Shown: piece after piece, positions 37,093 to 50,914 of the stretch | Layout: each line of letters begins with the position of its first letter | Position numbering within the stretch: position 1 is the first letter of the stretch | Assembly (NCBI GenBank): GCA_023245145.1 | Contig: JAHFKW010000002.1 | Span: 54,601-118,600, forward strand | Direction: 5' to 3' | From: Candidatus Staskawiczbacteria bacterium | Lineage (GTDB): Bacteria; Patescibacteriota; Minisyncoccia; Minisyncoccales; Staskawiczbacteraceae | DNA length: 64,000 nt | Made by a program: the position numbers and the translations under genes | The notes under the pieces: generated by a model | The model's database searches: none | The model's input: only the letters and a program-made list of their open reading frames with translations | Told to the model about the DNA's origin: nothing

Positions 37093-37300
37093 ATCTCATG
37101 GAACATGGAGCATGGAACATGAAACAAAAACCTTTTCGTTTGCTTCATGCCTTATGCTTCATGCTTTATGATTTTTAACTAAAAAGCCTGCGACCAGCAG
37201 ACATACAACAAAAATATACGTTGTACCTCGGCGGGATTTTTACTGACCTTTCGGCCTCCCCGCTATCTACGGCTTTATATTGCTATACTAGTCTAATTCT
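37093..37300 (-). promoter_or_regulatory. structured rplJ 5' leader with attenuator-like terminator and tandem-repeat hairpin
   Basis: On the minus strand: hairpin gtctgc-tggtc-gcaggc plus ttttt (37181-37202). Then a long imperfect hairpin of catgNNNN units (37097-37170) ends 4 nt before the ATG. No SD. Confidence 0.4.
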
Positions 37301-38372: not shown

Positions 38373-39017
38373 TTATATTTTCTTTTTTAATGAAAAGATA
38401 TAAGCGATACCATCAATCTTCTGAAATTCGGCAACTTCCATATTACATTCCTCGGCTAATGCTTCAAATGATTTTTTTTGAAACTGCTCTGATGAATTCG
38501 CCCCTATTTTCTCATTGAAAATAACCCTTGTGCCCTCTACTTTATCAATAGGCACACTAATAATTTTATACATTTCCATTCTTGCGGGTAGAGCATCTTC
38601 AGAATAAACACTAATAATTACTTTTCCGCTATCTTTAACTACACGATACATTTCTTTTAATGCTTTGATTTTATTTTCCCCAAAATTAACTAGTGTCATC
38701 AACAAAATAACAGTATTAAATGATTCATCATCAAAAGGAAGATCAAACGCATCGGCAAGTAGAATATTTGAAGCAACAATAGGCAATCTGCTTTTAGTAG
38801 TTGCTATTGCCTTTTCATCATTATCAATACCGAAAACATCAGCAGTAATTGGTAAAATGGTTTCTATATTCCTACCATTGCCACAACCAATATCTAAAAC
38901 TTTTGAATCTTTTTCTATGTGGCTGATTAAAAACTCCTTTTCAGAATCTAAAAGTTTTTTATATGTTGGTGTGGGATTTCGCACTATTTTTTCCCAGTAA
39001 TCTGTATTTGTATTCAT
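38373..39017 (-). CDS. class I SAM-dependent methyltransferase
   Basis: Motif I VLDIGCGNGRN and post-I/II spacing typical of the Methyltransf_11/25 type. Confidence 0.75.
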   Translation of the reverse strand: MNTNTDYWEKIVRNPTPTYKKLLDSEKEFLISHIEKDSKVLDIGCGNGRNIETILPITADVFGIDNDEKAIATTKSRLPIVASNILLADAFDLPFDDESFNTVILLMTLVNFGENKIKALKEMYRVVKDSGKVIISVYSEDALPARMEMYKIISVPIDKVEGTRVIFNEKIGANSSEQFQKKSFEALAEECNMEVAEFQKIDGIAYIFSLKKKI

Positions 39018-39076
39018 GCTAGTTTTTAAAATATTCTTTGAGCATTGTCATTAATGTTGTTCTGCCCCGATTGGTT

Positions 39077-39316
39077 TTAATTACTTAAAAAGTGTTTATT
39101 TAGAAATGCCCTCCCAGATCCTGATTTTAAATATCTCTCAAAGTTAAAAGCTTTATATTTATCCTCTATGGCAATATAAAAGTTTAAACTCACGGGTAAA
39201 ACTTTAGCGGTTGTAGGAACCTCTCCTTTTTTATGTCTTCCCATTCTATCCTTAAGGTTATTTGTACATCCTATATAGTAACCTATTTTACACTTTAGAT
39301 TGTATACATAGTACAT
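39077..39316 (-). CDS. GIY-YIG domain protein
   Basis: MYYVYNLKC..GYYIGCTNNLKDRMGRH (GIY...YIG...R...H/N pattern); 79 aa. Confidence 0.7.
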   Translation of the reverse strand: MYYVYNLKCKIGYYIGCTNNLKDRMGRHKKGEVPTTAKVLPVSLNFYIAIEDKYKAFNFERYLKSGSGRAFLNKHFLSN

Positions 39317-39528
39317 ATTGAAATCCCGCCTTCGCGAATCTTCTAGCAGGCTTTGCCTTGCCGAAGCTTCGCTATGGCGAAGCGAAGGCAGGAGATGTTA
39401 AACGAAGTGAGAATTTATTTTAGCACGCTAGATCGATACGATCCATTCCCGAATTTCAGCCTAATTACCACAAATAATAGCACAATTTGACGGTTTTTGG
39501 TAGCATTCGCTAACAAAACACTTTTCTA

Positions 39529-39569
39529 TAAAAAAACAAGGCTTGCAGAGAACGAATCCTCCGCAAGCC
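39529..39569 (-). terminator. intrinsic terminator ending the GC-rich four-gene cassette
   Basis: ggcttgc / gcaagcc stem, with ttgttttttta following on the minus strand. Confidence 0.7.
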
Positions 39570-39585
39570 CATTGACCCACTCCTC

Positions 39586-39933
39586 CTAATGAAAGGCGGA
39601 GAAAAACGCATCGACCAAGGTGACCCAGACGAAGCCTTTCATACCCGGAGGCAGAAGACCTTGAACGGCCGCCGCCATGTCGTCAGTGCGAAGCTGACCC
39701 GTCAAGATGCGAGCTTCAAACTTCGTGGCGATGATCAAGACATCGAGGTCACCCTCCACGACGTTGAACTGCGAATCCTGAACCCGGATTGAGATGTCAG
39801 CGGGTGTCAGCTCCGTGAGGTGATTTTCGGGCACGGTGAGGTGCTCAGCCACAATGGCTGGCAGCTTTGCCACCACCTCCCTGAGTAACTCGTCGCCAAC
39901 CTTGGCAGAACGACAGAGAAGCACGACTGGCAT
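39586..39933 (-). CDS. hypothetical protein, possible tautomerase-superfamily fold (Met-Pro N-terminus, two beta-alpha-beta units)
   Basis: 115 aa; MPVVLLCRS...GDELLREVVAKLPAIVAEHL...ISIRVQD, then DVLIIATKF...MAAAVQGLL...GFVWVTLVD. SD aaagga upstream. GC-rich. Confidence 0.3.
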   Translation of the reverse strand: MPVVLLCRSAKVGDELLREVVAKLPAIVAEHLTVPENHLTELTPADISIRVQDSQFNVVEGDLDVLIIATKFEARILTGQLRTDDMAAAVQGLLPPGMKGFVWVTLVDAFFSAFH

Positions 39934-39936
39934 GGT

Positions 39937-40254
39937 TTATTCCTTTCTGGTTAAAGTAGGTGTTCGAAAAAGATCAGCTCGAAATGGTTTGGCAGTTCCA
40001 TTCGCTTGGTAGCGTGATTGAACTTGCCAATTTGATAGTTCGGCTATTTTGGCTTCCAACGCCTCCTCTGTCCGAGCCATCAACACGAGCTTGATGACCG
40101 CTTTGCCATCGATGATTTCGGAGTCCCAAACCAAGGTTGCTTGGTCGGGTTGGTAGGCTTCATGCACCACGACAGTCAAAGTCGCAATGCCAAGCAGAGC
40201 CAGAAAACCAATAACAACTGTGGCCACAGTTTTTCCATCTGGAGATGGAATCAT
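39937..40254 (-). CDS. small membrane-anchored hypothetical protein
   Basis: 105 aa; TM helix TVATVVIGFLALLGIATLTVVV; strong SD aaggaga upstream. Confidence 0.55.
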   Translation of the reverse strand: MIPSPDGKTVATVVIGFLALLGIATLTVVVHEAYQPDQATLVWDSEIIDGKAVIKLVLMARTEEALEAKIAELSNWQVQSRYQANGTAKPFRADLFRTPTLTRKE

Positions 40255-40289
40255 ATTGCTCTCCTTTCTGAAAATGATTGAACTGTCGA

Positions 40290-40583
40290 TTACTCGAGAA
40301 TCTTTTTCACTTCCACTTGGATTTTCTCCTTATCAGAACCGATACTCCAAGTTTGATGTTCAAGATTGAAACGGATTTCCCGAATCAACGTGCCACCGAC
40401 GTAGATTTGCAAGTATTTCCTGTCGTCGTAGTCAGTCGCCAAAAAGCGACTTACCACATGCACCTCTTCGCAGAAATACTTGTAGTGCTTGTTGAGCAGT
40501 GGCTCTCCTTGGATTGGTGTGATTTGCACCAGATCACCAACACATGGGACTTCGGGCGGAAAAACTGATTCAAGCATGATCAA
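40290..40583 (-). CDS. hypothetical protein
   Basis: 97 aa; SD ggag upstream; first gene behind the 40693-40721 promoter and an ~110-nt structured leader. Confidence 0.55.
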   Translation of the reverse strand: MIMLESVFPPEVPCVGDLVQITPIQGEPLLNKHYKYFCEEVHVVSRFLATDYDDRKYLQIYVGGTLIREIRFNLEHQTWSIGSDKEKIQVEVKKILE

Positions 40584-40692
40584 GCTCCGTGTAACTAGTA
40601 AAAGAACTCCTCTAGCTTCGTCGTTTCTGACTCCCTAGCAAGAGCAACGCACTCTTACAACGGGGTCGATACGGGGAAGTATCGATGCCACT

Positions 40693-40721
40693 ATTCTACT
40701 ATTTTTATAAGATAATGTCAA
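40693..40721 (-). promoter_or_regulatory. near-consensus sigma70 promoter
   Basis: Minus strand: TTGACA (40716-21), 17-nt spacer, TAGAAT (40693-98). Confidence 0.6.
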
Positions 40722-40788
40722 TATTTTAATTTTGGCAAATAATAAAAAAGCACACCACATCCCGAGGGATTGATGTGCTAAAGACTCT

Positions 40789-41436
40789 TTAGAGCCATTC
40801 GATATTATCGCAGTCGATCACGGGTGGAAGTTTAACATCAGGGCTACTCGTCCATTTCTGGGCAATCCTTTCTTCCTTGATACTGCAGTCCATTCCTCCA
40901 CCAGCTTCCTTGAGATACTTGGTGAGTATGGGAAGCAGTTGATAGATTTGCTTTCGCAAACCCGACATCGTGTAAACACGCCTGATGCCCTTGGGCGTGG
41001 GGAGTTGACCCATGTAAAGTCCCATCGCCTCGAGAGCATCGAACAACCTCGCGTCAGACTGGTCGCGCAGGAGGGAGACATGAATCTCATCCTGCTTGAA
41101 CTGACCGGGTAAAAGATTTTTCATGCTCACTTTGAATGGCAGAGGGACAGAGTGGTCAAAGGGTTTAAACGTGATGTCCTCGTCGCTGGGAATGAACTCA
41201 CCCTCAATGTATCCTTTCAGGCCTTTTGAGCTGTCTGCATATTCTTCGAGTGCCTTGAACACATCGAAGAACTCCACGGGAGATGTGGTTTTGTAGGTCA
41301 GATGGGTGTTGGGTTCCCAGCTGTCATGGCCGGGCTCATGGAGAAAATTGTTCACCCAGAACCCAACTTCCAAAACGTGTTGCTTGAAATCGGGCGTCAT
41401 TTCTTCGGCATCAATGTGAATGTGCCACATGGTCAT
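40789..41436 (-). CDS. hypothetical protein (start trimmed to MTMWHIHIDAEE...)
   Basis: aggagac lies 5 nt upstream of the ATG at 41436. The 22-codon extension in the track ORF lacks an RBS. An imperfect hairpin plus T-run lies downstream at about 40750-40785. Confidence 0.6.
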   Translation of the reverse strand: MTMWHIHIDAEEMTPDFKQHVLEVGFWVNNFLHEPGHDSWEPNTHLTYKTTSPVEFFDVFKALEEYADSSKGLKGYIEGEFIPSDEDITFKPFDHSVPLPFKVSMKNLLPGQFKQDEIHVSLLRDQSDARLFDALEAMGLYMGQLPTPKGIRRVYTMSGLRKQIYQLLPILTKYLKEAGGGMDCSIKEERIAQKWTSSPDVKLPPVIDCDNIEWL

Positions 41437-41511
41437 AGTCGTCTCCTTTTGTTTGTGTGCTACACGAAGATTGTAAAAGGGCTGGTTGCTCATCCAGAAT
41501 GACAAAACCTG

Positions 41512-41545
41512 TTGACAAGGTCAAGTGTTTCACATATAATGTGAA
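41512..41545 (+). promoter_or_regulatory. perfect-consensus sigma70 promoter with 7-3-7 inverted repeat over the -10
   Basis: TTGACA (41512-17), 17 nt, TATAAT (41535-40). ttcacat-ata-atgtgaa (41529-45) is a perfect inverted repeat. Confidence 0.65.
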
Positions 41546-41587
41546 GAAAGAGTAAATTATTGAGACAAGTCATTAAAAAGTTTCACT

Positions 41588-42316
41588 ATGAAGATATTAA
41601 GAGAGATAGGCCTCACTGAACGTGAGTCACAAATTTATGAACTATTGTTACGGCTTGGAGAGTCGCCAGTTTCGGCTATTTTGAAAGCGACTGGAATACA
41701 CCCTCAAGTCGCCTATCGCGTAATTGATAGCCTTGTAAACAAGGGATTAGTCATAAACGCACGTCGAAACAATCGAACTTTTGTGAGCGCGGAAAATCCA
41801 AAGCGGTTGGAGAGAATAGAAGAAGATAGACTACATAAAATCCGCGAAGCGATTCCTGAGTTAATCGCGCTACAAAAGGCATCAAAAGATACTGTTGTCA
41901 GAGTTTCAAGAGGCGATGATGCTGTTAGGGCTTTGCGTTCTCGTGGCGTAGATGAACTAAAAAGGAATGCCACCTATTACATTATTGGTGGCTCTGGTGA
42001 CCGATATTACAAGGTTATGGGTTCACGCTACGAAGAAATTGAGCGCAAGAGAATCAAAAAGAAAATACATAAAAAACTCATCACTTTTTTAAGTCAGAAA
42101 AACCAGTTAGATAAAAATGATACGTTTAGGGAAATGGCAGAATTTAGATACCTGCCAAATGATTACCCTGTCGGGTCAAGCACTAATATTTTTGGCAATA
42201 CGGTTGCTATCATAATTTGGGCGGCTGATCCCGTAGTTATTACCATTGAAAGTGAGGAGGTGGCTGAGAGCTATAAAAAGTATTTTAATGTGTTGTGGCA
42301 GATTGCGCAGGCGTAA
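41588..42316 (+). CDS. TrmB-family winged-helix transcriptional regulator
   Basis: The N-terminus LREIGLTERESQIYELLLRLGESPVSAILKATGIHPQVAYRVIDSLVNKGLV is the TrmB-type wHTH; 242 aa. Confidence 0.7.
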   Translation: MKILREIGLTERESQIYELLLRLGESPVSAILKATGIHPQVAYRVIDSLVNKGLVINARRNNRTFVSAENPKRLERIEEDRLHKIREAIPELIALQKASKDTVVRVSRGDDAVRALRSRGVDELKRNATYYIIGGSGDRYYKVMGSRYEEIERKRIKKKIHKKLITFLSQKNQLDKNDTFREMAEFRYLPNDYPVGSSTNIFGNTVAIIIWAADPVVITIESEEVAESYKKYFNVLWQIAQA

Positions 42317-42754
42317 TGCATCAGCACCCCACCCGTGTCGCACCAGTTTAGCCCGTGTGACGAGATGTTAGCGAACTTGAGCATAATTAGGCAGCTTCAG
42401 CCACCGGGGCAATATGAGGGCGTGTGGCAAAATTGAATCAATTTTAATCACCAAGTGGTAAATTGGCTTGGCAAAGCGAAAAATGGTATAATACAGGTAG
42501 AAAGGCAAAATTAAACGTCAACCACCGCCAATTCGAGAGGAACAGGAGACAGCAAAGCAGAATTAGAAAAGCAAGAAAAAACCATCTAGGATTTGACCCT
42601 GAAATCAATGCAATCCGACCATGATCAATCCCTATTTGGCGCACATTAAGATTAAAGAATTAAAAAGCCGAAAATGAAGCTATTTTGGCTCAAATAATTG
42701 GCACTTACCGCATCTACCAATGCGGATTTTCCTTAATGATTTCGGCAACTAAAA

Positions 42755-43324
42755 ATGTTTCAAAGGGTGCTACTTTTTGGGAGGGGCAAAGAGGTCGTGG
42801 AGAACCAAGATTCCATCAGTATTTTTGAATTGAATAAGTGTTCAGAGTCTTGGGAACGGAACCTACAGTTCGTGGGTCCAAGAATCTTTAAACTCGGTAA
42901 CACGAGAGCGAGGCTCATCAATGACCCTCACTGGCACGATTGGTATCTGGAATTACAGGAACCGTGGGAGGGATGCGACAATACTGCCATTACAATTGTT
43001 AAAACACCCTGTCACTACGGCGGCTACCGTGAATGGTTTGAGTGTCCTAAATGCAACAAGCGAGCTGGGATTCTGTATCGAGCGGAAGACGAATTCAAGT
43101 GCCGCAAGTGCCTCAACCTTAACTATCAATCACAAAAACAAAACTACCGCACGATTGCGCCAATCATACGGCGCTGGAGGAAGTTTGAAGATATGAAACG
43201 GCCAAGGAGTTATAATTTCTACAAAGGAAAAATTACCAAACGTGCCAAGAGGTATTGGGAGCAACGAGAAAAAGTGGAGTTTGGGATGAATTTCTTAGCC
43301 GATAAGTTCGCGTATGAAGCGTAA
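42755..43324 (+). CDS. zinc-ribbon hypothetical protein
   Basis: CHYGGYREWFECPKCNKRAGILYRAEDEFKCRKCLNLNY contains two CxxC pairs; basic C-terminus; 189 aa. Confidence 0.55.
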   Translation: MFQRVLLFGRGKEVVENQDSISIFELNKCSESWERNLQFVGPRIFKLGNTRARLINDPHWHDWYLELQEPWEGCDNTAITIVKTPCHYGGYREWFECPKCNKRAGILYRAEDEFKCRKCLNLNYQSQKQNYRTIAPIIRRWRKFEDMKRPRSYNFYKGKITKRAKRYWEQREKVEFGMNFLADKFAYEA

Positions 43325-43534
43325 TTTAATACGCTATAATTTTATTATGCAGTGTGAGAAGCTGCTTTTTTTTGCATCAAACTAAGTTCTGGGGTATTCT
43401 CTACTCCCTCGTATGATGCGTTCAGAACGCTAAATTGGGAAAAGTTAAGGGTAGAAATGAATGTTTTAAGTAATATTTGACCCTGCTTGCAATTTTATTT
43501 TAAAAGGCGCAAAATTAGGGCACTAAATTGAAAC

Positions 43535-46500
43535 ATGGTAAGTGGGAATACACCTAATTTTAACGAATCGATTACGCCAAAGCCTTTTAATTTTGGCGAT
43601 AATCAAAAACAGAAATCCATTCATGAAAGACTGGGGCGGCTTGTTGGTCCCGGTCCCGCTGCTTTCTACAAAGACGCTTGTAGGCATATAACAATAGCCC
43701 CTCCATTTGAATCCTCTACTCATATTGTTGGTCATTTGGTGAGGGAAATAGAAAGTGCTCTAAGAGACGTTTTGGAGTCCATTAGCGACGAACCGGCAAA
43801 AACCCAAAAAAAGGAAGAACATAAACAAGAAATTATTGTTATTCTTAAGGCGCTTGAAATTCCCGAGCAGGATCCGATTGCGCAGGCGTGGATTAGCCTT
43901 GCAGGCGAAGATGGTTTACCAAAACGCGCCCACAGAGACAACTTAGAAGTGGCACGCCCTATTGATAAGGAATACCTTGAATTTTGGACCCAAATGGAAG
44001 TTATTCTTGATGTAGTATTGGATAAATTTGAAGGTCAGTATGTTAAGGTTTTTGCCCTATTGGATGCTCTTGCACAAAAACTTGATCCTACAGCAGAAGA
44101 TGCCAAAATAATTCATTTGCATGTGCCAAATAACCTTGTTGCTCACCAAAGATTTTTTGGCCAGCTAGCTAATCCCAAATGGCTACCTTTTTTAAATACA
44201 CAAGGCTTATTTTCTGACCCACCAAAGGTTGAGCAAGATCCCGAGAGCGGTGGAGTTAGACATTTGCCATGGCCAGCTTTATTTTATTTAGAAAAAATAG
44301 CACCGACCAATCCGGATCTTGTAACAGAAATTTTATTGGCAGTTAAGGACACAGAAAACTCAAGCGTAAAAAGAGATTTACTCAAAATTACGGCTATTCT
44401 CCCAAAGGAAAAAAAGTTATTACTTACAGCAAAGATTGGATCTTGGCTACAAACAAGTAATTCATTTTTTCAATACGGACTAATCGAGCCAGGCAGTGCT
44501 CTAATGAAGGGCTTTACTGAAGATGGCGAAGAAGAATTTGCTTTTGAGATTGCGAAAAGATTTTTAGAAATCCTTCCAGATCCTCAACCGCCCCAGGGAG
44601 ACGATTTTTATACTCCTGATTCCAGACCAACAACAAGATTGGAGTCCTGGTATTATCAAAAATTCTTAAATGAAGATTTTCGGAAACTTATCACGGTCAA
44701 TCCAAAAAAGTCCTTTGTTTTTGTTTGCGACCTGCTGGTTAATTATCTAAAACTCGAGAGGCAAAACAAGAGCCAGGAAGATAAGGAATATTATAGGGAT
44801 TACTCATACATCAAAAGGCCAGCGGTAGAAAATCATGAACAAAATCACGATCGGGATGACACAGAAAATCTACTTATTAATGCTATCCGTGACATTGGTT
44901 TGCAGGTAGTTCAACTAAATTCCCAGGAATTGAAATGGGTTATATTAGAACTGGAAGCCAGAAAGTGGGGTATTTTCAAAAGAATAGCTATACACTTTTT
45001 GGGTCAATGGCCGGAAGCGGAAAGAGATTTGACCGCCAAATATCTCACAGATGAATCCTTATTTAATGAATCTGATTTTCAGCATGAACAGGGTCAGTTA
45101 ATGAATAAGGGATTTAAGCTACTAGACACAAAAGAACAAAATACGATACTAGAATGGATTGAAAATGCCCAAGAAGCTCGCGATTTCATTGAAGTCAGAA
45201 AAAAAGAAACTTCCGTTACACCCGCGCAGGAAAAAAAGAAAATAAATGCTTGGCAGAGAGATCAGCTTTTTTATATGAAAAACGACCTGCCAGAAGAATG
45301 GAAGAAGCGGTATGCGGAATTTGCACTAGAGTATGGAGAGCCAGAACACCCAGATTTTCCCACCTATATGACTAGTTGGGTTGGTCCCACTAGCGAAGTT
45401 AATTCTCAAGAGTTAGTCGAGATGGATGCACAAAATATTATCAAGCTCCTTAAAACCTGGATACCTAAAGATGAAGTTCATGGCTTTGGTTCCACAAAAG
45501 AAGGGTTAGGACGTGAATTGACCTTAGCAATAAAGGCTAAACCAGATAAATTCGAGGATTTAGTAGAGGAATTCAAAGATCTAGATCCCACATATGTTAG
45601 AGCTTACGTTCAAGCTTTTAGCGAATTAATCCAAGGTAATTACCAATTAAGTTGGGCGAGAATTCTTGACCTCTGTTTTTGGGTTGTTCAACAGCCAAGA
45701 GCAATAATAGACAGGAAAAGCAAAGGCTTGGATCAGGATCCCGACTGGGGCTGGTGTCGAAGAACAATCGCATCACTTCTTTCACGAGGGCTGAATGATG
45801 GCAGCATACCATTTGAACTAAGAGAGACTGTTTGGAAAATTATTGAGCCCTTGACTCAGGATCCTGATCCTAGACCAGAAGATGAAAGTAAACGGGAAGA
45901 ACAAAGCGATGATGCATACACAGATGCCATTAATCGCACAAGAGGGGAAGCTATGAATGCAACTGTAGAATATGCCTTATGGACTCATCGATCTATTGAA
46001 AAAGAAATCGATGGCAAAGAGAAACTAAAGGAAGGATTTAATTTGATGCCTGAGGTAAGAATTGTGCTTGAATGGCACTTAAAGGCTCAAAATGACCCAT
46101 CGAGAGCAGTGCGTTCGATTTACGGGAGATTTTTGCCGTGGCTCATGCTTATCGATAGAAAATGGGTTTTGGAAAATATCGATAAGATTCTGCCCCCAGG
46201 CCAATTTGAAGATCGGCTTTATATCGCAGCGTGGAATACATTAATGTTATACGTTCCAGTTTACAATGACCCTTTTGATTTATTAAAAGATCGCTATCAG
46301 GAGGCAATTCAAAATTTGGGTAAAATCGATAAAAAGAGAACGAGACACATAGATAGAGACGAAAGAGTTGTTGAGCATTTAATGCTTCAATATGGAAGGG
46401 GTAAAATTGAACTAAATGAACCACTTTTGGTGAGCTTTTGGAAATTAGCAGATGATAAATTACGAGGCCATGCCATCGGTTTTATAGGTAGAGGATTGCG

Positions 46501-46972
46501 AAGCGAAAAAGAGGAGATAGATCCGAAAACATATGTAAGAATGAAGGCACTATGGGAAAGTCGTCTAAATGAAGCCAAGTCTGCTGAAAATAAAGCAGAT
46601 TACAAAGAAGAAATGTCCGCCTTCGGATGGTGGTTCATCTCTAATAAATTTGAAGATAAGTGGTTATGTGAACAATATTCGGAAGCCTTAGAGATTGGGA
46701 AGAATATCCAACTGGACTACGTTGTTCTTGAGCGATTAGCTGAAATAAGTAAGAGTTTACCCGCTGAGGCTTTGAATATTTTAGCTAAACTAGTTTTATC
46801 GGATCAACCCGGGTGGGCTGTAATTGGCAATAAAGGGGAAATAGTTCAGATTCTGACCATTGCCTTAGCTTCGCCGGAAAAAAATGCTCAAGTTATCGCC
46901 ACTGAACTTATAAATCGTTTAGTATCTAGGGGTCACGCAGAATTTAATGACTTGCTACAAAAAAACCGCTAA
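43535..46972 (+). CDS. 1145-aa all-helical (HEAT/ARM-like) protein of unknown function
   Basis: Longest ORF in the window. I found no P-loop, nuclease or peptidase motif by eye. The C-terminus looks like helical repeats (LERLAEISKSLPAEALNILAKLVLSD...). The start codon is uncertain because there is no RBS. Confidence 0.65.
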   Translation: MVSGNTPNFNESITPKPFNFGDNQKQKSIHERLGRLVGPGPAAFYKDACRHITIAPPFESSTHIVGHLVREIESALRDVLESISDEPAKTQKKEEHKQEIIVILKALEIPEQDPIAQAWISLAGEDGLPKRAHRDNLEVARPIDKEYLEFWTQMEVILDVVLDKFEGQYVKVFALLDALAQKLDPTAEDAKIIHLHVPNNLVAHQRFFGQLANPKWLPFLNTQGLFSDPPKVEQDPESGGVRHLPWPALFYLEKIAPTNPDLVTEILLAVKDTENSSVKRDLLKITAILPKEKKLLLTAKIGSWLQTSNSFFQYGLIEPGSALMKGFTEDGEEEFAFEIAKRFLEILPDPQPPQGDDFYTPDSRPTTRLESWYYQKFLNEDFRKLITVNPKKSFVFVCDLLVNYLKLERQNKSQEDKEYYRDYSYIKRPAVENHEQNHDRDDTENLLINAIRDIGLQVVQLNSQELKWVILELEARKWGIFKRIAIHFLGQWPEAERDLTAKYLTDESLFNESDFQHEQGQLMNKGFKLLDTKEQNTILEWIENAQEARDFIEVRKKETSVTPAQEKKKINAWQRDQLFYMKNDLPEEWKKRYAEFALEYGEPEHPDFPTYMTSWVGPTSEVNSQELVEMDAQNIIKLLKTWIPKDEVHGFGSTKEGLGRELTLAIKAKPDKFEDLVEEFKDLDPTYVRAYVQAFSELIQGNYQLSWARILDLCFWVVQQPRAIIDRKSKGLDQDPDWGWCRRTIASLLSRGLNDGSIPFELRETVWKIIEPLTQDPDPRPEDESKREEQSDDAYTDAINRTRGEAMNATVEYALWTHRSIEKEIDGKEKLKEGFNLMPEVRIVLEWHLKAQNDPSRAVRSIYGRFLPWLMLIDRKWVLENIDKILPPGQFEDRLYIAAWNTLMLYVPVYNDPFDLLKDRYQEAIQNLGKIDKKRTRHIDRDERVVEHLMLQYGRGKIELNEPLLVSFWKLADDKLRGHAIGFIGRGLRSEKEEIDPKTYVRMKALWESRLNEAKSAENKADYKEEMSAFGWWFISNKFEDKWLCEQYSEALEIGKNIQLDYVVLERLAEISKSLPAEALNILAKLVLSDQPGWAVIGNKGEIVQILTIALASPEKNAQVIATELINRLVSRGHAEFNDLLQKNR

Positions 46973-47058
46973 TTGAAGGACAAAAATGACCTTAAAGCGG
47001 CGTGTGTGGCCTAAATTTGAACTGTGTGCAGGCTATTTTGTAAATCTTGGCAAAGGTA

Positions 47059-47487
47059 TCAGCTATGGCTTTTATTGATTAGACCTCGGGCAATATTGAC
47101 GGCCTGTTGAAATAGGTTAAACTTTTGAGTAGTAAATGGGATTGCATAGTTACTTTTCCAGGCACTACTCTGTTTTTGTGCCCAATATCCAAGATTTGCA
47201 TTTTGTGTAGCTGCTGAAATTACCTCTAAGGTTCCCGTAATTAGATTTTTCTTAATCTCAATACCTACTACATTACGGTAATCGAAAGCAGTGCAACGTC
47301 CTCCGAACGTATTACCGGTCATGTAGCCCCATTTTATAATGTAAATATGACGGTCTGTAAGCACGAAAGCTTGTCCCCATGGCGCCTTTAGTTTTACGAC
47401 GATCTTCTCACTTGGCTGCATATTTGCGGCAAGATGTTTTTCACCACGCGATCCTAACGATTCGATGAGAGAAGTATTATTATTCAT
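47059..47487 (-). CDS. bacterial PH-domain-like (YokE-type) protein, start trimmed to MNNNTSL...
   Basis: GEKHLAANMQPSEKIVVKLKAPWGQAFVLTDRHIYIIKWG...FDYRNVVGIEIKKNLITGTLEVI follows the bPH pattern as I recall it. Confidence 0.4.
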   Translation of the reverse strand: MNNNTSLIESLGSRGEKHLAANMQPSEKIVVKLKAPWGQAFVLTDRHIYIIKWGYMTGNTFGGRCTAFDYRNVVGIEIKKNLITGTLEVISAATQNANLGYWAQKQSSAWKSNYAIPFTTQKFNLFQQAVNIARGLINKSHS

Positions 47488-47751
47488 GGTTTTTATTTTT
47501 AATAATATTTGACTGCGGGTAAACAAAAAGTCCACCACAGGTAGCGGCCGAAGCCGCCCATATAGGTTTCCCTATACGACCGAACAAACGGATCCCATGA
47601 TGGATTCTTTATGTTTGTTCGGATTTTTTACCATGCCCATAGAAAAACCCATGGGTTTAGGCAAACGATATTAAATTGTTGCTTGATTATAGCTTCTTTC
47701 GGGTTTCTTATCAACTCTTGTAAATCCTTACAATAAAATCATTCTGCACAT

Positions 47752-47960
47752 TTGACAATATCTTTGGACCTGCTAAAATGGAGGCAAGGTAGTGTTCTTT
47801 CAAGGAAATAAATAGAAAAACAAAAACTTTTCGTAACCTCTTCAGAGCAACTTTTGAGGCAACTCAACGACAAAAGTAGGTTCGTCACGTGTTAGTGGCG
47901 GCTCTTCTTTTGTTTTTGGAAAAAAGCAAGACCCTACAAACACATAGGGTCTTTTTGTTG
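47752..47960 (+). ncRNA. candidate ~170-nt sRNA (consensus promoter to intrinsic terminator, no ORF)
   Basis: TTGACA (47752-57), 16 nt, TAAAAT (47774-79). Terminator agacccta/tagggtct plus ttttgtt (47929-60). The only ATG gives 4 codons. Confidence 0.35.
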
Positions 47961-47963
47961 TAG

Positions 47964-48397
47964 ATAATCTTGAACGCCAAAAATCCAAGGAAGCCCATTG
48001 CTCACTTGGCAAGTCTTAGAACTGGCGTTCAAGAACTTGCTAAGCGAATAGTGGGCTTCTTTATTTTTTCTAACAATACTCTTGCCCGAGCAGATGAGAT
48101 CGCTCGTCTATTCAGGCAAGAGAATTAAAATCTCTTGGAGCAAATACTATCACTGAGTATCAGTGACTATTCAAGCCCTAGGGCGAATTCCATAGGGGGC
48201 TTGTAAATCAAAATAGCTATGGACTTGATAATAACTGCCTTATACGGGAAGCATTATCAAAACACTGATCACGTTAAAGCTAAATGTTCTTGGGAGTGAT
48301 CAGGTTTACGGCTCGGAAGCGATAGTATCCAAGTTAGAGCAAGAGCTAAGTCGTCTCCCAGAGAAAAGGGATAAAAGACGCTGCGAACTTCTGGAAT
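47964..48397 (+). pseudogene. possible decayed coding remnants in three frames
   Basis: Hand translation gives protein-like stretches interrupted by stops and frameshifts: ...NPRKPIAHLASLRTGVQELAKRIVGFFIFSNNTLARADEIARLFRQEN*, ...DLIITALYGKHYQNTDHVKAK, then with a shift VLGSDQVYGSEAIVSKLEQELSRLPEKRDKRRCELLE*. Confidence 0.25.
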
Positions 48398-48490
48398 GAA
48401 AATTCCTTGGGGGTAAGGGGGCTCTTGAAATTCAGCCATACCGGGAAGCAGTTATCAAAAGGTCGAAAAGTTAACAAAAAAATAAAACTT

Positions 48491-48634
48491 ATGAACAAAA
48501 CATCACAAAGTTTAGCAAGCAAAAAACTTGAGGAAGAAATCAGCAAGAGCTATGCGACGCATTACAGAAAGCAGCATTCAGAATCTATCAAGAGAGGTTT
48601 AGCGGCGGCAAAGGCAAGAAAAAAATCTTTTTAA
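48491..48634 (+). CDS. small basic hypothetical protein (internal start of track ORF 48407-48634)
   Basis: MNKTSQSLASKKLEEEISKSYATHYRKQHSESIKRGLAAAKARKKSF; weak support. Confidence 0.3.
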   Translation: MNKTSQSLASKKLEEEISKSYATHYRKQHSESIKRGLAAAKARKKSF

Positions 48635-48668
48635 CAGGGAATAATTAATAAAAACACTCGACCCTCTC

Positions 48669-49088
48669 ATGTTATCGCACGAAGCCATAAAAAAATACCA
48701 GAAGATTTACCGCAAGCTATTCGGAATAGAAATCTCTCTCGAAGAAGCGGCTGAACAAGCAACACGACTCTTGAATGTAGCCCGCGTTGTTTTTCAGCCC
48801 ATGCCAAAATCATTTGAAAAACGATATAACGAATTACTGCAAGAAAAGCATTTGAAAGCTCAAAGAGAGAAAATCATCTACCAGAAAGTAAAGCCAAGAC
48901 TGCAATACGTTTACGCGACAGACGTTTGTGCAGAAGCCGATTACATGCAATCCGTGGCTGGCGATAACTTGCAAACGAATAACCGTGGCCTTGTCACAGA
49001 TCTTTTGGCTTTGAGGCAAAGCTGTGCAATAATGCTGGGCTTCGGAGCCAGCAGAGGAATTACGGCAGCTAATTTGGCGTGCGGATAG
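48669..49088 (+). CDS. hypothetical protein upstream of the recombinase
   Basis: 139-aa ORF. The N-terminal ~75 aa are helical and protein-like, while the C-terminal part looks less so, so the real end is uncertain. Confidence 0.4.
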   Translation: MLSHEAIKKYQKIYRKLFGIEISLEEAAEQATRLLNVARVVFQPMPKSFEKRYNELLQEKHLKAQREKIIYQKVKPRLQYVYATDVCAEADYMQSVAGDNLQTNNRGLVTDLLALRQSCAIMLGFGASRGITAANLACG

Positions 49089-49130
49089 GATTGCTATGTC
49101 ACACGGACCCGCTATAATGTTAATAATGTT

Positions 49131-50873
49131 ATGAAAAAACAAGAAATCATAAAACTTGCGGGCTATTTTAGAAAGTCCTCTGAAGACAATGATCGTCAGA
49201 TTTTAAGTATTCCGGCACAAATTCCATGGGCTGAAAACCTAGTAGCGCGCCTCGGTCTAGAAATGCAAGAAATATTCAAAGAAGAACGCTCGGCAACGAC
49301 ACCCTACCGACGACCGGAATTTGACAACCTCGTCGCAAAAATCAGAAGTGGAACAATTAATGCGATTGTTTGCTGGAAACTTGACCGTCTCGCCCGTAAT
49401 CCCGAAGAAGCAGGTATTATTCTTGGCCTACTAAAGCGAGGAGAACTCAAGCGCATCATAACCAATGACCGCGAGTATCGTCCTGAAGACAATACTATTA
49501 TTTCTTACGTGGACTTCGGCATGGCTGATCAGTTTTCCCGTGATTTAAGTAAAAATGTAAAACGTGGTCTGTGGCAAAAAGCCAGCGCAGGTGAACGGCC
49601 GGGCGCCCTTCCTCTGGGCTACATTCAAAAACCGGGCATGGCTAGAGGTGAAGCAGTAAACATTCCCGATCCGGATCGATTTGAACTGGTAGAGCGCATG
49701 TTTCATCTTTTTTTAGCCGGCACCTACTCTGTCAGGGAATTGCAACGAGAAACAGTAAAATGGGGACTTAAAACTCGGCAAACCAAGCGACAAGGAGGTA
49801 AAGATGTTAGTATTTCCCAAATTTACAATATGCTGGGAGACCCATTTTATTGTCGCTTGTATTGGTGGATGAATAACGATACCGGAGAAATTGAACAGCG
49901 CATTGGCAATCACAAAGCGATGATTACCGAAGAAGAACACGAAATCATTTTAAGAAAACTGGGTAATAGAAGAAAATCAAGGCCAAAGAATAAAAACAAG
50001 CAACTCCCCTACCTTGGAAAAATGGAATGTGGAGAGTGTGGCTGTGCAGTTACCGGAGAAGATAAATACCAAATTATTTGCACCATTTGTAAAAGAAAAT
50101 CAGCGCTCACCGACAAAAGAAAAGATTGTCCGGGATGTAGCACAAAAATTGAAGAAATGAGAGAACCGAAAATTCTCCATTACATTTATTATCATTGCAC
50201 CAAGAGAAAAAATCGAAAATGCACTCAGTATTCGGTAACAGTGGGACAACTGGAAAAAATAGTTGATTCGGCTATTGAAGAATTCACACTCTCTGAAGCC
50301 TTCACGACATGGGCGCTGGAGGAACTCGAAAAAGATACTAATTACCAAATCAAAAGCCAAAACACCGTCATCAACTCGCAGCAAGAGCAATACAAGATCA
50401 CCGTCGCCTCACTCCAAAACCTTACGAAACTCTACACCTCACCCAAAAACGTGAATGGTGCGTTGCTTTCCATGGAAGAATACCAAACGCAACGAGAAGA
50501 ACTCCTTGCAGAAAAAAAGCGACTCGAGAAAGATCAACAAGTCACAGGACGCAAAATTGAAGAATGGATTGATTGGGCGACTAACTCTTTTGACTTTGCA
50601 ACAGCCGCAAGGGTTTGGTTTGAAAAGGGATCACCCCAACAGAAACGAGACATCTTCTTCTCGCTCTCCGGTTCGAACCTAATTTTGAAAGATGAAAAGC
50701 TAGGTATTTCCCTAAAGAAACCACTAGACTTCTATTCCGCCATCGCAATTGCTTACCCTTCAACAAAAATCAGGTTAGAACCTGAAAAAATGACCCAAAA
50801 TGAAGCTAAATACCTTCCTTTCGCGGCAGATATTCCACGCTTGCAGGGGAACTGGGAATCGAACCCAGGCTAA
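49131..50873 (+). CDS. large serine recombinase
   Basis: Resolvase catalytic domain (AGYFRKSSEDNDRQILSIPAQ, WKLDRLARN), a recombinase domain, Cys-rich zinc ribbon (CGECGCAVTGE...YYHCTKRKNRKC) and a coiled-coil tail; 580 aa. Confidence 0.85.
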   Translation: MKKQEIIKLAGYFRKSSEDNDRQILSIPAQIPWAENLVARLGLEMQEIFKEERSATTPYRRPEFDNLVAKIRSGTINAIVCWKLDRLARNPEEAGIILGLLKRGELKRIITNDREYRPEDNTIISYVDFGMADQFSRDLSKNVKRGLWQKASAGERPGALPLGYIQKPGMARGEAVNIPDPDRFELVERMFHLFLAGTYSVRELQRETVKWGLKTRQTKRQGGKDVSISQIYNMLGDPFYCRLYWWMNNDTGEIEQRIGNHKAMITEEEHEIILRKLGNRRKSRPKNKNKQLPYLGKMECGECGCAVTGEDKYQIICTICKRKSALTDKRKDCPGCSTKIEEMREPKILHYIYYHCTKRKNRKCTQYSVTVGQLEKIVDSAIEEFTLSEAFTTWALEELEKDTNYQIKSQNTVINSQQEQYKITVASLQNLTKLYTSPKNVNGALLSMEEYQTQREELLAEKKRLEKDQQVTGRKIEEWIDWATNSFDFATAARVWFEKGSPQQKRDIFFSLSGSNLILKDEKLGISLKKPLDFYSAIAIAYPSTKIRLEPEKMTQNEAKYLPFAADIPRLQGNWESNPG

Positions 50874-50914
50874 AGGTTTTGGAGACCTTTGTGATACCAC
50901 TTCACCATTCCCCT
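50844..50914 (-). tRNA. tRNA-Trp (anticodon CCA), no encoded CCA end
   Basis: Hand-drawn: AGGGGAA-TG-GTGA-AGTGGTA-TCAC-A-AAGGT-CTCCAAA-ACCTT-TAGC-CTGGG-TTCGATT-CCCAG-TTCCCCT-G. The 3' 30 nt overlap the recombinase ORF end in antisense. Confidence 0.85.

Follow-up and report, generated by a model that had tools for sequence, protein, structure and literature searches.

The window, a stretch of 64,000 nucleotides (nt) from a Candidatus Staskawiczbacteria bacterium (contig JAHFKW010000002.1, positions 54,601 to 118,600), carries an integrative element of 11,455 bp (~11.46 kb; 39388-50847) at its gene for tRNA-Trp. Several independent lines of sequence evidence make it very probable that this island was inserted at the tRNA 3' end by a large serine recombinase (LSR). 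In this model the tRNA-Trp gene receives the island at its very 3' end, through the island's own LSR and with the crossover in a core of 5 nt, and the LSR open reading frame (ORF) then reads 8 codons of the tRNA and stops. The original prediction, made from the letters alone, had described an island ending in such a recombinase. Beyond it, the attachment site of the element (attP) is placed here within the LSR ORF, and the arrangement is found to be a family-wide trait with an att-site logic of its own. The best named matches of ClpC and YceG in the window are from Candidatus Staskawiczbacteria, with 52-65% identity, and the host is a Patescibacteria bacterium. The ends of the island are defined by the following features:

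49131-50873, plus strand: LSR, integrated form, 580 aa (Pfam, homolog alignment, structure profile)
50843/50844-50914, minus strand: tRNA-Trp(cca), intact (ARAGORN; Rfam 68 bits)
39388-39392, no strand: attL core GCAGG, left junction; the same 5 nt stand at 50843-50847
50843-50847, no strand: attR core GCAGG, equal to tRNA positions 74-70
39392-39490, plus strand: displaced LSR 3' end, the P' arm of attP; 32 codons (EMLNEVRIYFSTLDRYDPFPNFSLITTNNSTI) and a stop

The 580-aa protein has the catalytic and recombinase domains that had been assigned to it, with matches above cutoff to Pfam Resolvase PF00239 (E 6e-17, residues 10-155) and Recombinase PF07508 (26.6 bits, cutoff 21.1), and it also matches the PHROG integrase phrog_95 (E 5e-53). 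The residues Y12, R14, S16, R86, and R89 are invariant among 34 homologs, R14 and S16 being the putative catalytic residues. The zinc ribbon and coiled coil of the original prediction are less certain: the Zn_ribbon_recom PF13408 score of the window protein, 16.8 bits, is under the 25.3 cutoff that many homologs exceed, but the cysteines C300, C303, C356, and C364 are invariant in the LSR alignment, and the AlphaFold2 model of the homolog P0005 has long paired helices at 387-497. A family profile, built from the ORF and 33 homologs, covers residues 6-303 in its alignment with 9dxh, the solved structure of the SPbeta integrase; searched alone against solved structures, the window LSR gave a match of the catalytic domain only.

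The ORF end reads ..ADIPRLQGNWESNPG and a stop. Its last 10 codons (LQGNWESNPG and the stop) overlap the 3' 30-31 nt of the tRNA-Trp, so that the antisense overlap with an intact tRNA noted earlier is borne out by ARAGORN, Rfam, and the ORF itself. Residues 1-572 are encoded by the element, and the last 8 residues and the stop come from the antisense tRNA-Trp, whose 3' 25-30 nt form the B' arm of the bacterial site attB. This tRNA has the same sequence in the conspecific contig L002 and differs at 2 positions in the relative L110. The same integrase is found as protein P0001 (sample ERZ27280176) with the end ..YPSTKSG at 548 aa; this end is consistent with one A fewer in the A5 run at about 50767-50771 of the window, either as a frameshift variant in the population or as an assembly error.

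The missing end of the LSR gene is located at the other boundary. Directly right of the left GCAGG and beside the GIY-YIG gene, a displaced tail of 32 residues (99 nt coding) is in frame with the core codon CAG and now stands at attL, 11.5 kb from the LSR body; the CAG of the core has an identical reading frame at both element ends. The body and the displaced fragment, when rejoined, read ..LPFAADIPRLQEMLNEVRIYFSTLDRYDPFPNFS.., which is colinear with zero indels with the intact homolog L007 (67% identity; ..LPFAADIPSLREALNDVRTYFSTLERYEPFPNFRL..). The displaced tail is likewise colinear without indel with those of L007 (..LREALNDVRTYFSTLERYEPFPNFRL..) and L105 (..LREMLNEVRTYFSTLETYEPFPNF..), and the DNA of L007 tracks the window attR left of the core and the window attL right of it. 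The shared core and the in-frame tail colinear with L007 thus place attP inside the 3' end of the LSR gene, and integration exchanges the C-terminus of the LSR. In the excised circle, the gene is predicted to encode 604 aa with the tail ..ADIPRLQ joined to EMLNEVRIYF.. and ending in PFPNF... The predicted attP junction of the circle is CCACGCTTGCAGGAGATGTTAAACGAAG, and the predicted attB is the tRNA-Trp joined to GCGAAGCGAAGGCAGGGGAACTGGG.

The left edge had been drawn at 39420 and needs to be moved about 30 nt further left, to the core at 39388-39392. Cores were assigned by frame-aware inspection, not by an automatic longest common substring. No direct or inverted repeats between the island ends were found beyond the 5-nt core, nor was a repeat of the tRNA 3' end found at the other island end, the 24-nt pattern occurring once in the window (<=3 mismatches). 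With the crossover in the core (tRNA positions 70-74), the tRNA body stays whole and host-derived.

The same architecture is widespread among relatives of the LSR, and hundreds of these integrases seem to share it. A scan of one genome per species gave 520 relatives, mainly from Patescibacteria, with further hosts in Verrucomicrobiota, Omnitrophota, Elusimicrobiota, Bacteroidota, and other phyla. Locus classes were counted on the 80 best of these 520. In 46 of the 80 loci the end of the LSR ORF lies in or at an antisense tRNA called by ARAGORN, and 8 loci have the T-loop motif only; an intact tail is present in at least 8, 5 run off the contig end, and 13 are of unclear class, several of them showing the tail motif. 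At least 54 of the 80 best relatives end in the 3' end of an antisense tRNA. The 46 tRNA targets comprise 11 isotypes, namely Asn (18), Ser (7), Gln (5), Trp (5), His (3), Leu (2), Ala (2), and one each of Gly, Ile, Lys, and Arg. Among 120 metagenome homologs, many end in RRGRDSNPR, WDSNP, or QDSNL, which are translations of an antisense tRNA T-arm, and about one third have the longer tail ..LRG(I/L)(L/V)(N/D)(D/E)VRT(Y/W)F....(F/Y)xIPxF. Only 2 relatives at >=30% identity were found in IMG/VR, and only 2 distant loci in the LSR search of JGI metagenomes. The intact-tail relatives adjoin Replic_Relax, DUF87/TrwB-like ATPase, DUF932, restriction, and RHS genes, and the elements look like plasmids or integrative and conjugative elements (ICEs), not like phages.

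Some target tRNA genes contain group I introns (Rfam RF00028, above threshold):

L046, 11639-11987, minus strand: group I intron
L037, 11648-11912, minus strand: group I intron
L033, 11720-11970, minus strand: group I intron

ARAGORN missed the tRNAs of these loci because of the introns; L046 is in the T-loop-only class, and L033 and L037 are in the unclear class. A sequence similar to the intron loci, without an Rfam call, is present in L057.

The displaced tail is also a recurrent feature. The closest relative, L105 (63% identity), reads into tRNA-Ser(tga) and has its displaced tail (EMLNEVRTYFSTLETYEPFPNF..) 8.8 kb upstream, behind a shared TGCGG; the 50%-identical relative L107 is located in tRNA-Trp. 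Ten further loci have a displaced tail 6-12 kb upstream on the same strand, behind a core of 5-13 nt shared with attR. The core is 5-8 nt in most other loci and 5 nt in the window. The displaced tails of at least 8 other integrated loci are still open frames with the distal motif, which suggests selection on the reconstituted gene. Tandem arrays account for the intact LSRs that occur within chromosomes: L039 and L043 each have an intact LSR and, about 8 kb further on, a second LSR running into tRNA-Asn, and in L042 the 'attL' abuts another LSR. These are tandem pairs of different elements at one tRNA (L039 10001-19983; L043 467-11073; L042 11-11718), in which the left end of the neighbouring element gives the tRNA-distal integrase a full-length tail again. 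In L058 (4151-4335), three extra copies of TGCGGAG plus ATTAGTAAACGAAGTTAGAAC stand at 75-nt spacing downstream of an intact integrase; each copy is a core with an element arm, and together they are an array of left-end stubs.

The shared attL/attR cores of 11 loci all contain tRNA positions 71-74, and the crossover is therefore set at the discriminator base, plus or minus a base; in no case is the tRNA body interrupted. Outward from the core, the tRNA (B') arm and the P' arm carry related boxes:

50859-50864, plus strand: T-loop box TCGAAC of the tRNA (B') arm, starting 11 nt past the core
39407-39415, plus strand: mimic of the T-loop box in the P' arm, GTGAGAATT, degenerate against the family consensus GTTAGAACC; it encodes V-R-I

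The box of the window begins 16 nt past the core in the P' arm versus 11 nt in the tRNA arm, an offset of +5 bp. Across the family, TCGAAC of the tRNA arm begins 8-12 nt past the shared core, and the element arm has T(A/C)GAAC at exactly 5 nt more. This shift of +5 bp is seen at 9 of 9 other loci, as well as in L105 and the window. Rutherford et al. 2013 place the zinc-ribbon motif at positions 16-24 in attP and at 11-19 in attB, and the shift matches this published attP/attB signature of LSRs (the Rutherford/Van Duyne model). The zinc-ribbon domain of the LSR would read the universally conserved tRNA T-loop box TTCGAAC in attB and, in attP, the TT(A/C)GAAC mimic 5 bp further out. The family could switch isotypes because the T-loop box stands at a fixed distance from every tRNA 3' end, so that only the acceptor-stem contacts would need to change.

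The box TT(A/C)GAAC also codes for the conserved Val-Arg-Thr of the tail. In curated tails, which were picked by peptide and position and not by DNA motif, the Arg codon is AGA or CGA in 29 of 30 (background 39%), the Val codon is GTT in 21 of 24 (background 30%), and 24 of 31 read.TT[AC]GAAC. This codon use shows that the DNA of the box is itself under constraint. An inverted copy of the T-loop box was also sought in the left arms and rejected, since no convincing motif was seen and the palindromes there are terminator-like hairpins.

The last codons of the LSR hold one more signal, on the opposite strand:

50803-50842, minus strand: hairpin and U-rich tract 3' of tRNA-Trp on the tRNA-sense strand (minimum free energy -11.6, z -1.5)

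For the family, the 48 nt directly 3' of the tRNA were folded on the tRNA-sense strand, antisense to the last LSR codons. The mean z of 47 loci is -2.41, with 57% below -2, compared to a mean of -0.04 and 3.9% below -2 in 282 control windows from the same ORFs (Mann-Whitney p 1e-14). The hairpin is followed by a U-rich tract and is often flanked by an A-run, as in bidirectional terminators; its stems vary among elements and yet remain paired. Because integration moves the original trailer of the tRNA to attL, a substitute appears to come from the element, and the hairpin in the last ~45 nt of the LSR ORF is rather probably a replacement terminator for the tRNA.

The tail may have a role as protein as well. 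In the AlphaFold2 model of P0005, an intact 60%-identical homolog (34 aligned intact-tail sequences), a helix at 567-582 (pLDDT ~86) straddles the crossover with disordered segments on either side and would be severed by integration. Although it lies outside any plausible 50-bp att site, the distal motif (F/Y)xIPxF is conserved, and the displaced tail of the window keeps its distal PFPNF. A regulatory role of the tail swap in activity, stability, or directionality, comparable to Mx8 IntP/IntX, is a speculative proposal that is put forward with clear reserve.

The insertion is further supported by tRNA-Trp genes without the element. Identical-protein look-ups with the LSR, the GIY-YIG protein, and a 270-aa protein gave four long contigs of this organism in other samples, all of them with the element. 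In contrast, the 1.1-kb contig L002 (sample ERZ27280021) follows the window for 1026 nt at 99.9% identity, departs from it <=3 nt from the core, and then continues with CCAGGCACAATTCTGCG... In L110 (GCA_039739495.1), a related species whose YceG is 68% identical to that of the window, the tRNA-Trp is followed by CAAGGTACAAGTCTGCG and then by YceG, 28 nt from the tRNA, with no element. The trailers of L002 and L110 match at 14 of 17 positions, and because of this match L002 represents an unoccupied tRNA-Trp in a co-occurring strain. A reading of the L002 flank as the C-terminus of another LSR fails on the first 17 nt of this flank, which match the native trailer of L110. The integration-made junction of the original prediction is thus upheld by the displaced LSR end behind the same core, by L002, which diverges at the core, and by the empty L110. 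The suggested alignment to an empty site succeeded in part: L002 and L110 provide an unoccupied tRNA-Trp, but not the exact attB. Exact tRNA-Trp 3' patterns gave 0 matches in species-representative genomes and 0 in JGI metagenomes, and the ClpC relatives yielded no empty site, as their contigs stop short of it.

Between YceG and the element, the window has genes for a methyltransferase and a 79-aa GIY-YIG protein (38373-39316, minus strand). An older insertion at this tRNA may account for both genes; a junction for such an insertion was not found, and no trace of the native trailer was found upstream of the window YceG. An imperfect long palindrome (GCTTTGCCTTGCCGAAGCTTCGCTATGGCGAAGC) is located at 39350-39383, on the host side of attL and upstream of the GIY-YIG gene. 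It may be a remnant of the original terminator region of the tRNA, and it has no match to the L002 or L110 trailers.

The composition of the island had been judged by eye to differ from its flanks. The tetranucleotide distance bears this out, with z 2.0-5.7 within the element and a peak at 39-43 kb, and the GC content rises moderately (41.9% in the element versus 39.2% in the rest of the window), but the GC deviation by itself is not unique within the window. Composition therefore supports a foreign origin only moderately.

The cargo of the island comprises the following genes and one structured RNA:

39586-41505, minus strand: four ORFs of 115, 105, 97, and 238 aa, the most GC-rich part of the element
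41588-42316, plus strand: TrmB-type winged-helix regulator (Pfam PF01978, E 5e-12)
42755-43324, plus strand: zinc-ribbon protein, with tblastn matches in L080, L061, and L076, each just upstream of the LSR
43535-46972, plus strand: Dsr1-like protein of 1145 aa (PADLOC Dsr1, E 7e-54)
47059-47538, minus strand: ORF of 159 aa downstream of the LOOT RNA
47543-47663, minus strand: LOOT RNA RF03000 (94 bits versus a gathering threshold of 46.4; model 1-121 of 121)
48669-49088, plus strand: protein of 139 aa, whose N-terminal ~60 aa are conserved directly upstream of the LSR elsewhere

The four ORFs at 39586-41505 have no Pfam, PHROG, PADLOC, or NCBIfam matches; the 115-aa ORF has a 56%-identical homolog in the LSR locus L062. 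Dsr1 (defence-associated sirtuin 1) is a defence protein. Residues 414-1143 of the 1145-aa protein, its C-terminal 730 residues, align to positions 541-1223 of the 1227-position Dsr1 profile. The N-terminal ~410 residues are unrelated to Dsr1 and lack a recognisable domain where Dsr1 has SIR2: an N-terminal SIR2 was not found, with no Pfam family at E<=0.01 and a PADLOC match beginning only at profile position 541. L077 (53% identity, in an LSR element) and L031 have homologs, and the protein may be a Dsr1 variant with a new effector. The 159-aa ORF has no family matches in Pfam, PHROG, PADLOC, or NCBIfam and no homolog in other LSR loci. The 139-aa protein gave 21 tblastn matches, and all 12 listed are on the LSR strand, 0.2-2 kb upstream of the LSR, which makes it a candidate accessory or directionality factor.

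The LOOT RNA is shared with many relatives. It scores over the Rfam threshold in 7 of 7 related loci tested, and a model built from those loci detects the RNA 24 times, once in the window and otherwise in 22 of the 85 related LSR loci (L005, L019, L022, L024, L030, L031, L032, L036, L038, L039, L040, L048 with 2 copies, L052, L057, L064, L076, L077, L078, L081, L082, L084, and L089), four of which are other elements whose ends were mapped. The usual place of the RNA is on the strand opposite to the integrase, 1.5-7.5 kb upstream of it, without a conserved downstream gene. Outside the element, an L10_leader match (RF00557, window 37171-37290, minus strand) upstream of rplJ scores 43.1 bits, just under the gathering threshold of 44, and is an ordinary ribosomal-protein leader.

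Two explanations deny the LSR any part in the insertion. The block could be vertically inherited, with the overlap of ORF and tRNA a chance read-through and the LSR a resolvase or invertase acting elsewhere; it is carried by all four long contigs of the organism, and GC alone does not set it apart in the window. This is nevertheless extremely improbable, since the missing ORF end stands in frame at the other boundary behind the same core, the block is absent from a conspecific contig and a related species, the same architecture recurs in more than 50 unrelated loci at 11 tRNA isotypes, and the tetranucleotide composition deviates inside the element. Scarcely more credible is a classical insertion by another enzyme, for example a tyrosine integrase lost since, with the LSR as a passenger. 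Although tRNA 3' ends are the classical targets of tyrosine integrases, no tyrosine recombinase was found, with no Phage_integrase match in any island ORF; the tRNA 3' segment is not duplicated, the identity being 5 nt only; and the junction cuts the LSR's own ORF precisely, with a +5 bp box geometry that is specific to LSRs.

A more serious rival accepts the insertion by the LSR and holds that this copy is now an immobile, decaying remnant, in which the C-terminal swap is a neutral by-product of a compact int/attP module. The P' box of the window is degenerate and its hairpin is under the family norm, so the copy may indeed be decaying; a variant with an A-run shorter by 1 nt truncates the LSR at 548 aa, and the truncated LSR retains all known domains, so that the tail is maybe dispensable. 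On the other hand, the displaced tail is still open with its PFPNF, like those of the other integrated loci, which suggests selection via an excised stage; the element shows presence/absence polymorphism in the population; and the distal tail motif is conserved at the protein level outside the ~50-bp att site. The remnant explanation is accordingly rated as unlikely, though it keeps some weight. Insertion by the LSR is itself opposed by several observations. The exact attB of the insertion was not recovered, as the attL host flank (CTTCGCTTCGCC..) differs from both the L002 and L110 trailers, the methyltransferase and GIY-YIG genes between attL and YceG are absent from L110, and no trace of the native trailer was found upstream of the window YceG. 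L067 lacks a clean +5 register, the P' box of the window reads GAGAAT in place of TAGAAC, the left (trailer) half of attB has no recognisable conserved motif, and the window hairpin (z -1.5) is weaker than in the family. No recombination, excision, or circular junction was observed, and the model is drawn from sequence comparison.

The fullest form of the insertion model is offered tentatively, as a whole that is somewhat doubtful. The clade would use an attB made of T-loop and acceptor stem and an attP that holds the mimic and an antisense terminator in the last codons of the LSR. The C-terminal helix would be remodelled reversibly as an activity or directionality switch, perhaps with the small upstream protein, and the LOOT RNA would be a functional module of these elements. 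These mostly Patescibacteria-borne serine integrases would have taken the tRNA 3'-end niche of tyrosine integrases independently.

Mageeney et al. 2020 located 14 of 297 serine-integrase islands at t(m)RNA genes, a use that 'has not been reported previously' and that needs proof, and argued that the preference for tRNAs is specific to tyrosine recombinases, serine integrases seeming to avoid them. The earlier remark that an LSR element next to a tRNA is unusual agrees with this. In the main text of their LSR survey, Durrant et al. 2022 make no mention of tRNA, and no description of such an LSR clade was found in the literature on serine recombinases in Patescibacteria, of which the coverage was incomplete, so that an earlier description is possible.

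Similar to the LSRs of phages and ICEs (A118/LI, Bxb1, phiC31, and SPbeta SprA), the enzyme described here has the order catalytic domain, recombinase domain, and putative zinc ribbon with coiled coil, a short identity core without long repeats, and a putative zinc-ribbon motif 5 bp nearer to the centre in attB. In contrast, those LSRs have protein-coding targets and not a tRNA gene 3' end; here the integrase ORF itself contains attP, no phage can be recognised in the element, and the hosts are mainly Patescibacteria. The terminator-like hairpin embedded in the ORF end also differs from known serine integrases. The islands of the Islander/TIGER type at tRNA and tmRNA genes share the tRNA 3' end site, the preserved tRNA, and the tandem accretion. 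However, they are inserted by tyrosine integrases, and a duplicated 3' segment of 15-70 bp restores the tRNA, whereas the crossover here is at 71-74 and only the trailer and terminator have to be restored, apparently by the element.

An att site within a gene has several precedents among tyrosine recombinases. The SSV-type 'suicidal' integrases of archaeal viruses and plasmids have the site inside the integrase gene, tRNA gene targets, and a compact, readily exchanged int/att module, like the present family. Unlike it, they are tyrosine recombinases, and on integration their gene falls into two non-functional parts. In the present family the exchange is limited to the last ~32 codons, and all catalytic and DNA-binding domains are kept together. 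The integration-dependent immunity of mycobacteriophages also places attP in coding sequence and alters a protein C-terminus, but a repressor gene is remodelled by a tyrosine integrase, while here it is the integrase itself. The tyrosine integrase of myxophage Mx8 (IntP/IntX) has its attP within the 3' coding sequence of int. The Mx8 target is reportedly also the end of a tRNA gene. Mx8 differs in its unrelated enzyme family and mechanism, and any functional effect in the present family is putative. According to a review (PMC6070905), Mx8 integration creates a new int 3' end, which is reported to alter the behaviour of the integrase. A 2021 review lists recombinases with the site in their own gene only from archaea.

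The element is one member of a large and apparently undescribed mode of serine integrase use, and it provides a bacterial serine-recombinase case of an integrase that remodels its own gene upon integration. Whether tRNA genes are favoured for their conservation or for a trait of tyrosine recombinases becomes directly testable with a tRNA-specialised LSR clade. The proposed rule, a T-loop box at a fixed distance combined with a variable acceptor stem, would explain moves among at least 11 isotypes. As compact, cofactor-independent integrases for sites that occur in every genome, these enzymes are possible tools. For the little-known mobilome of Patescibacteria, the family brings cargo for defence, elements stacked in tandem at tRNAs, and a place for the hitherto orphan LOOT RNA.

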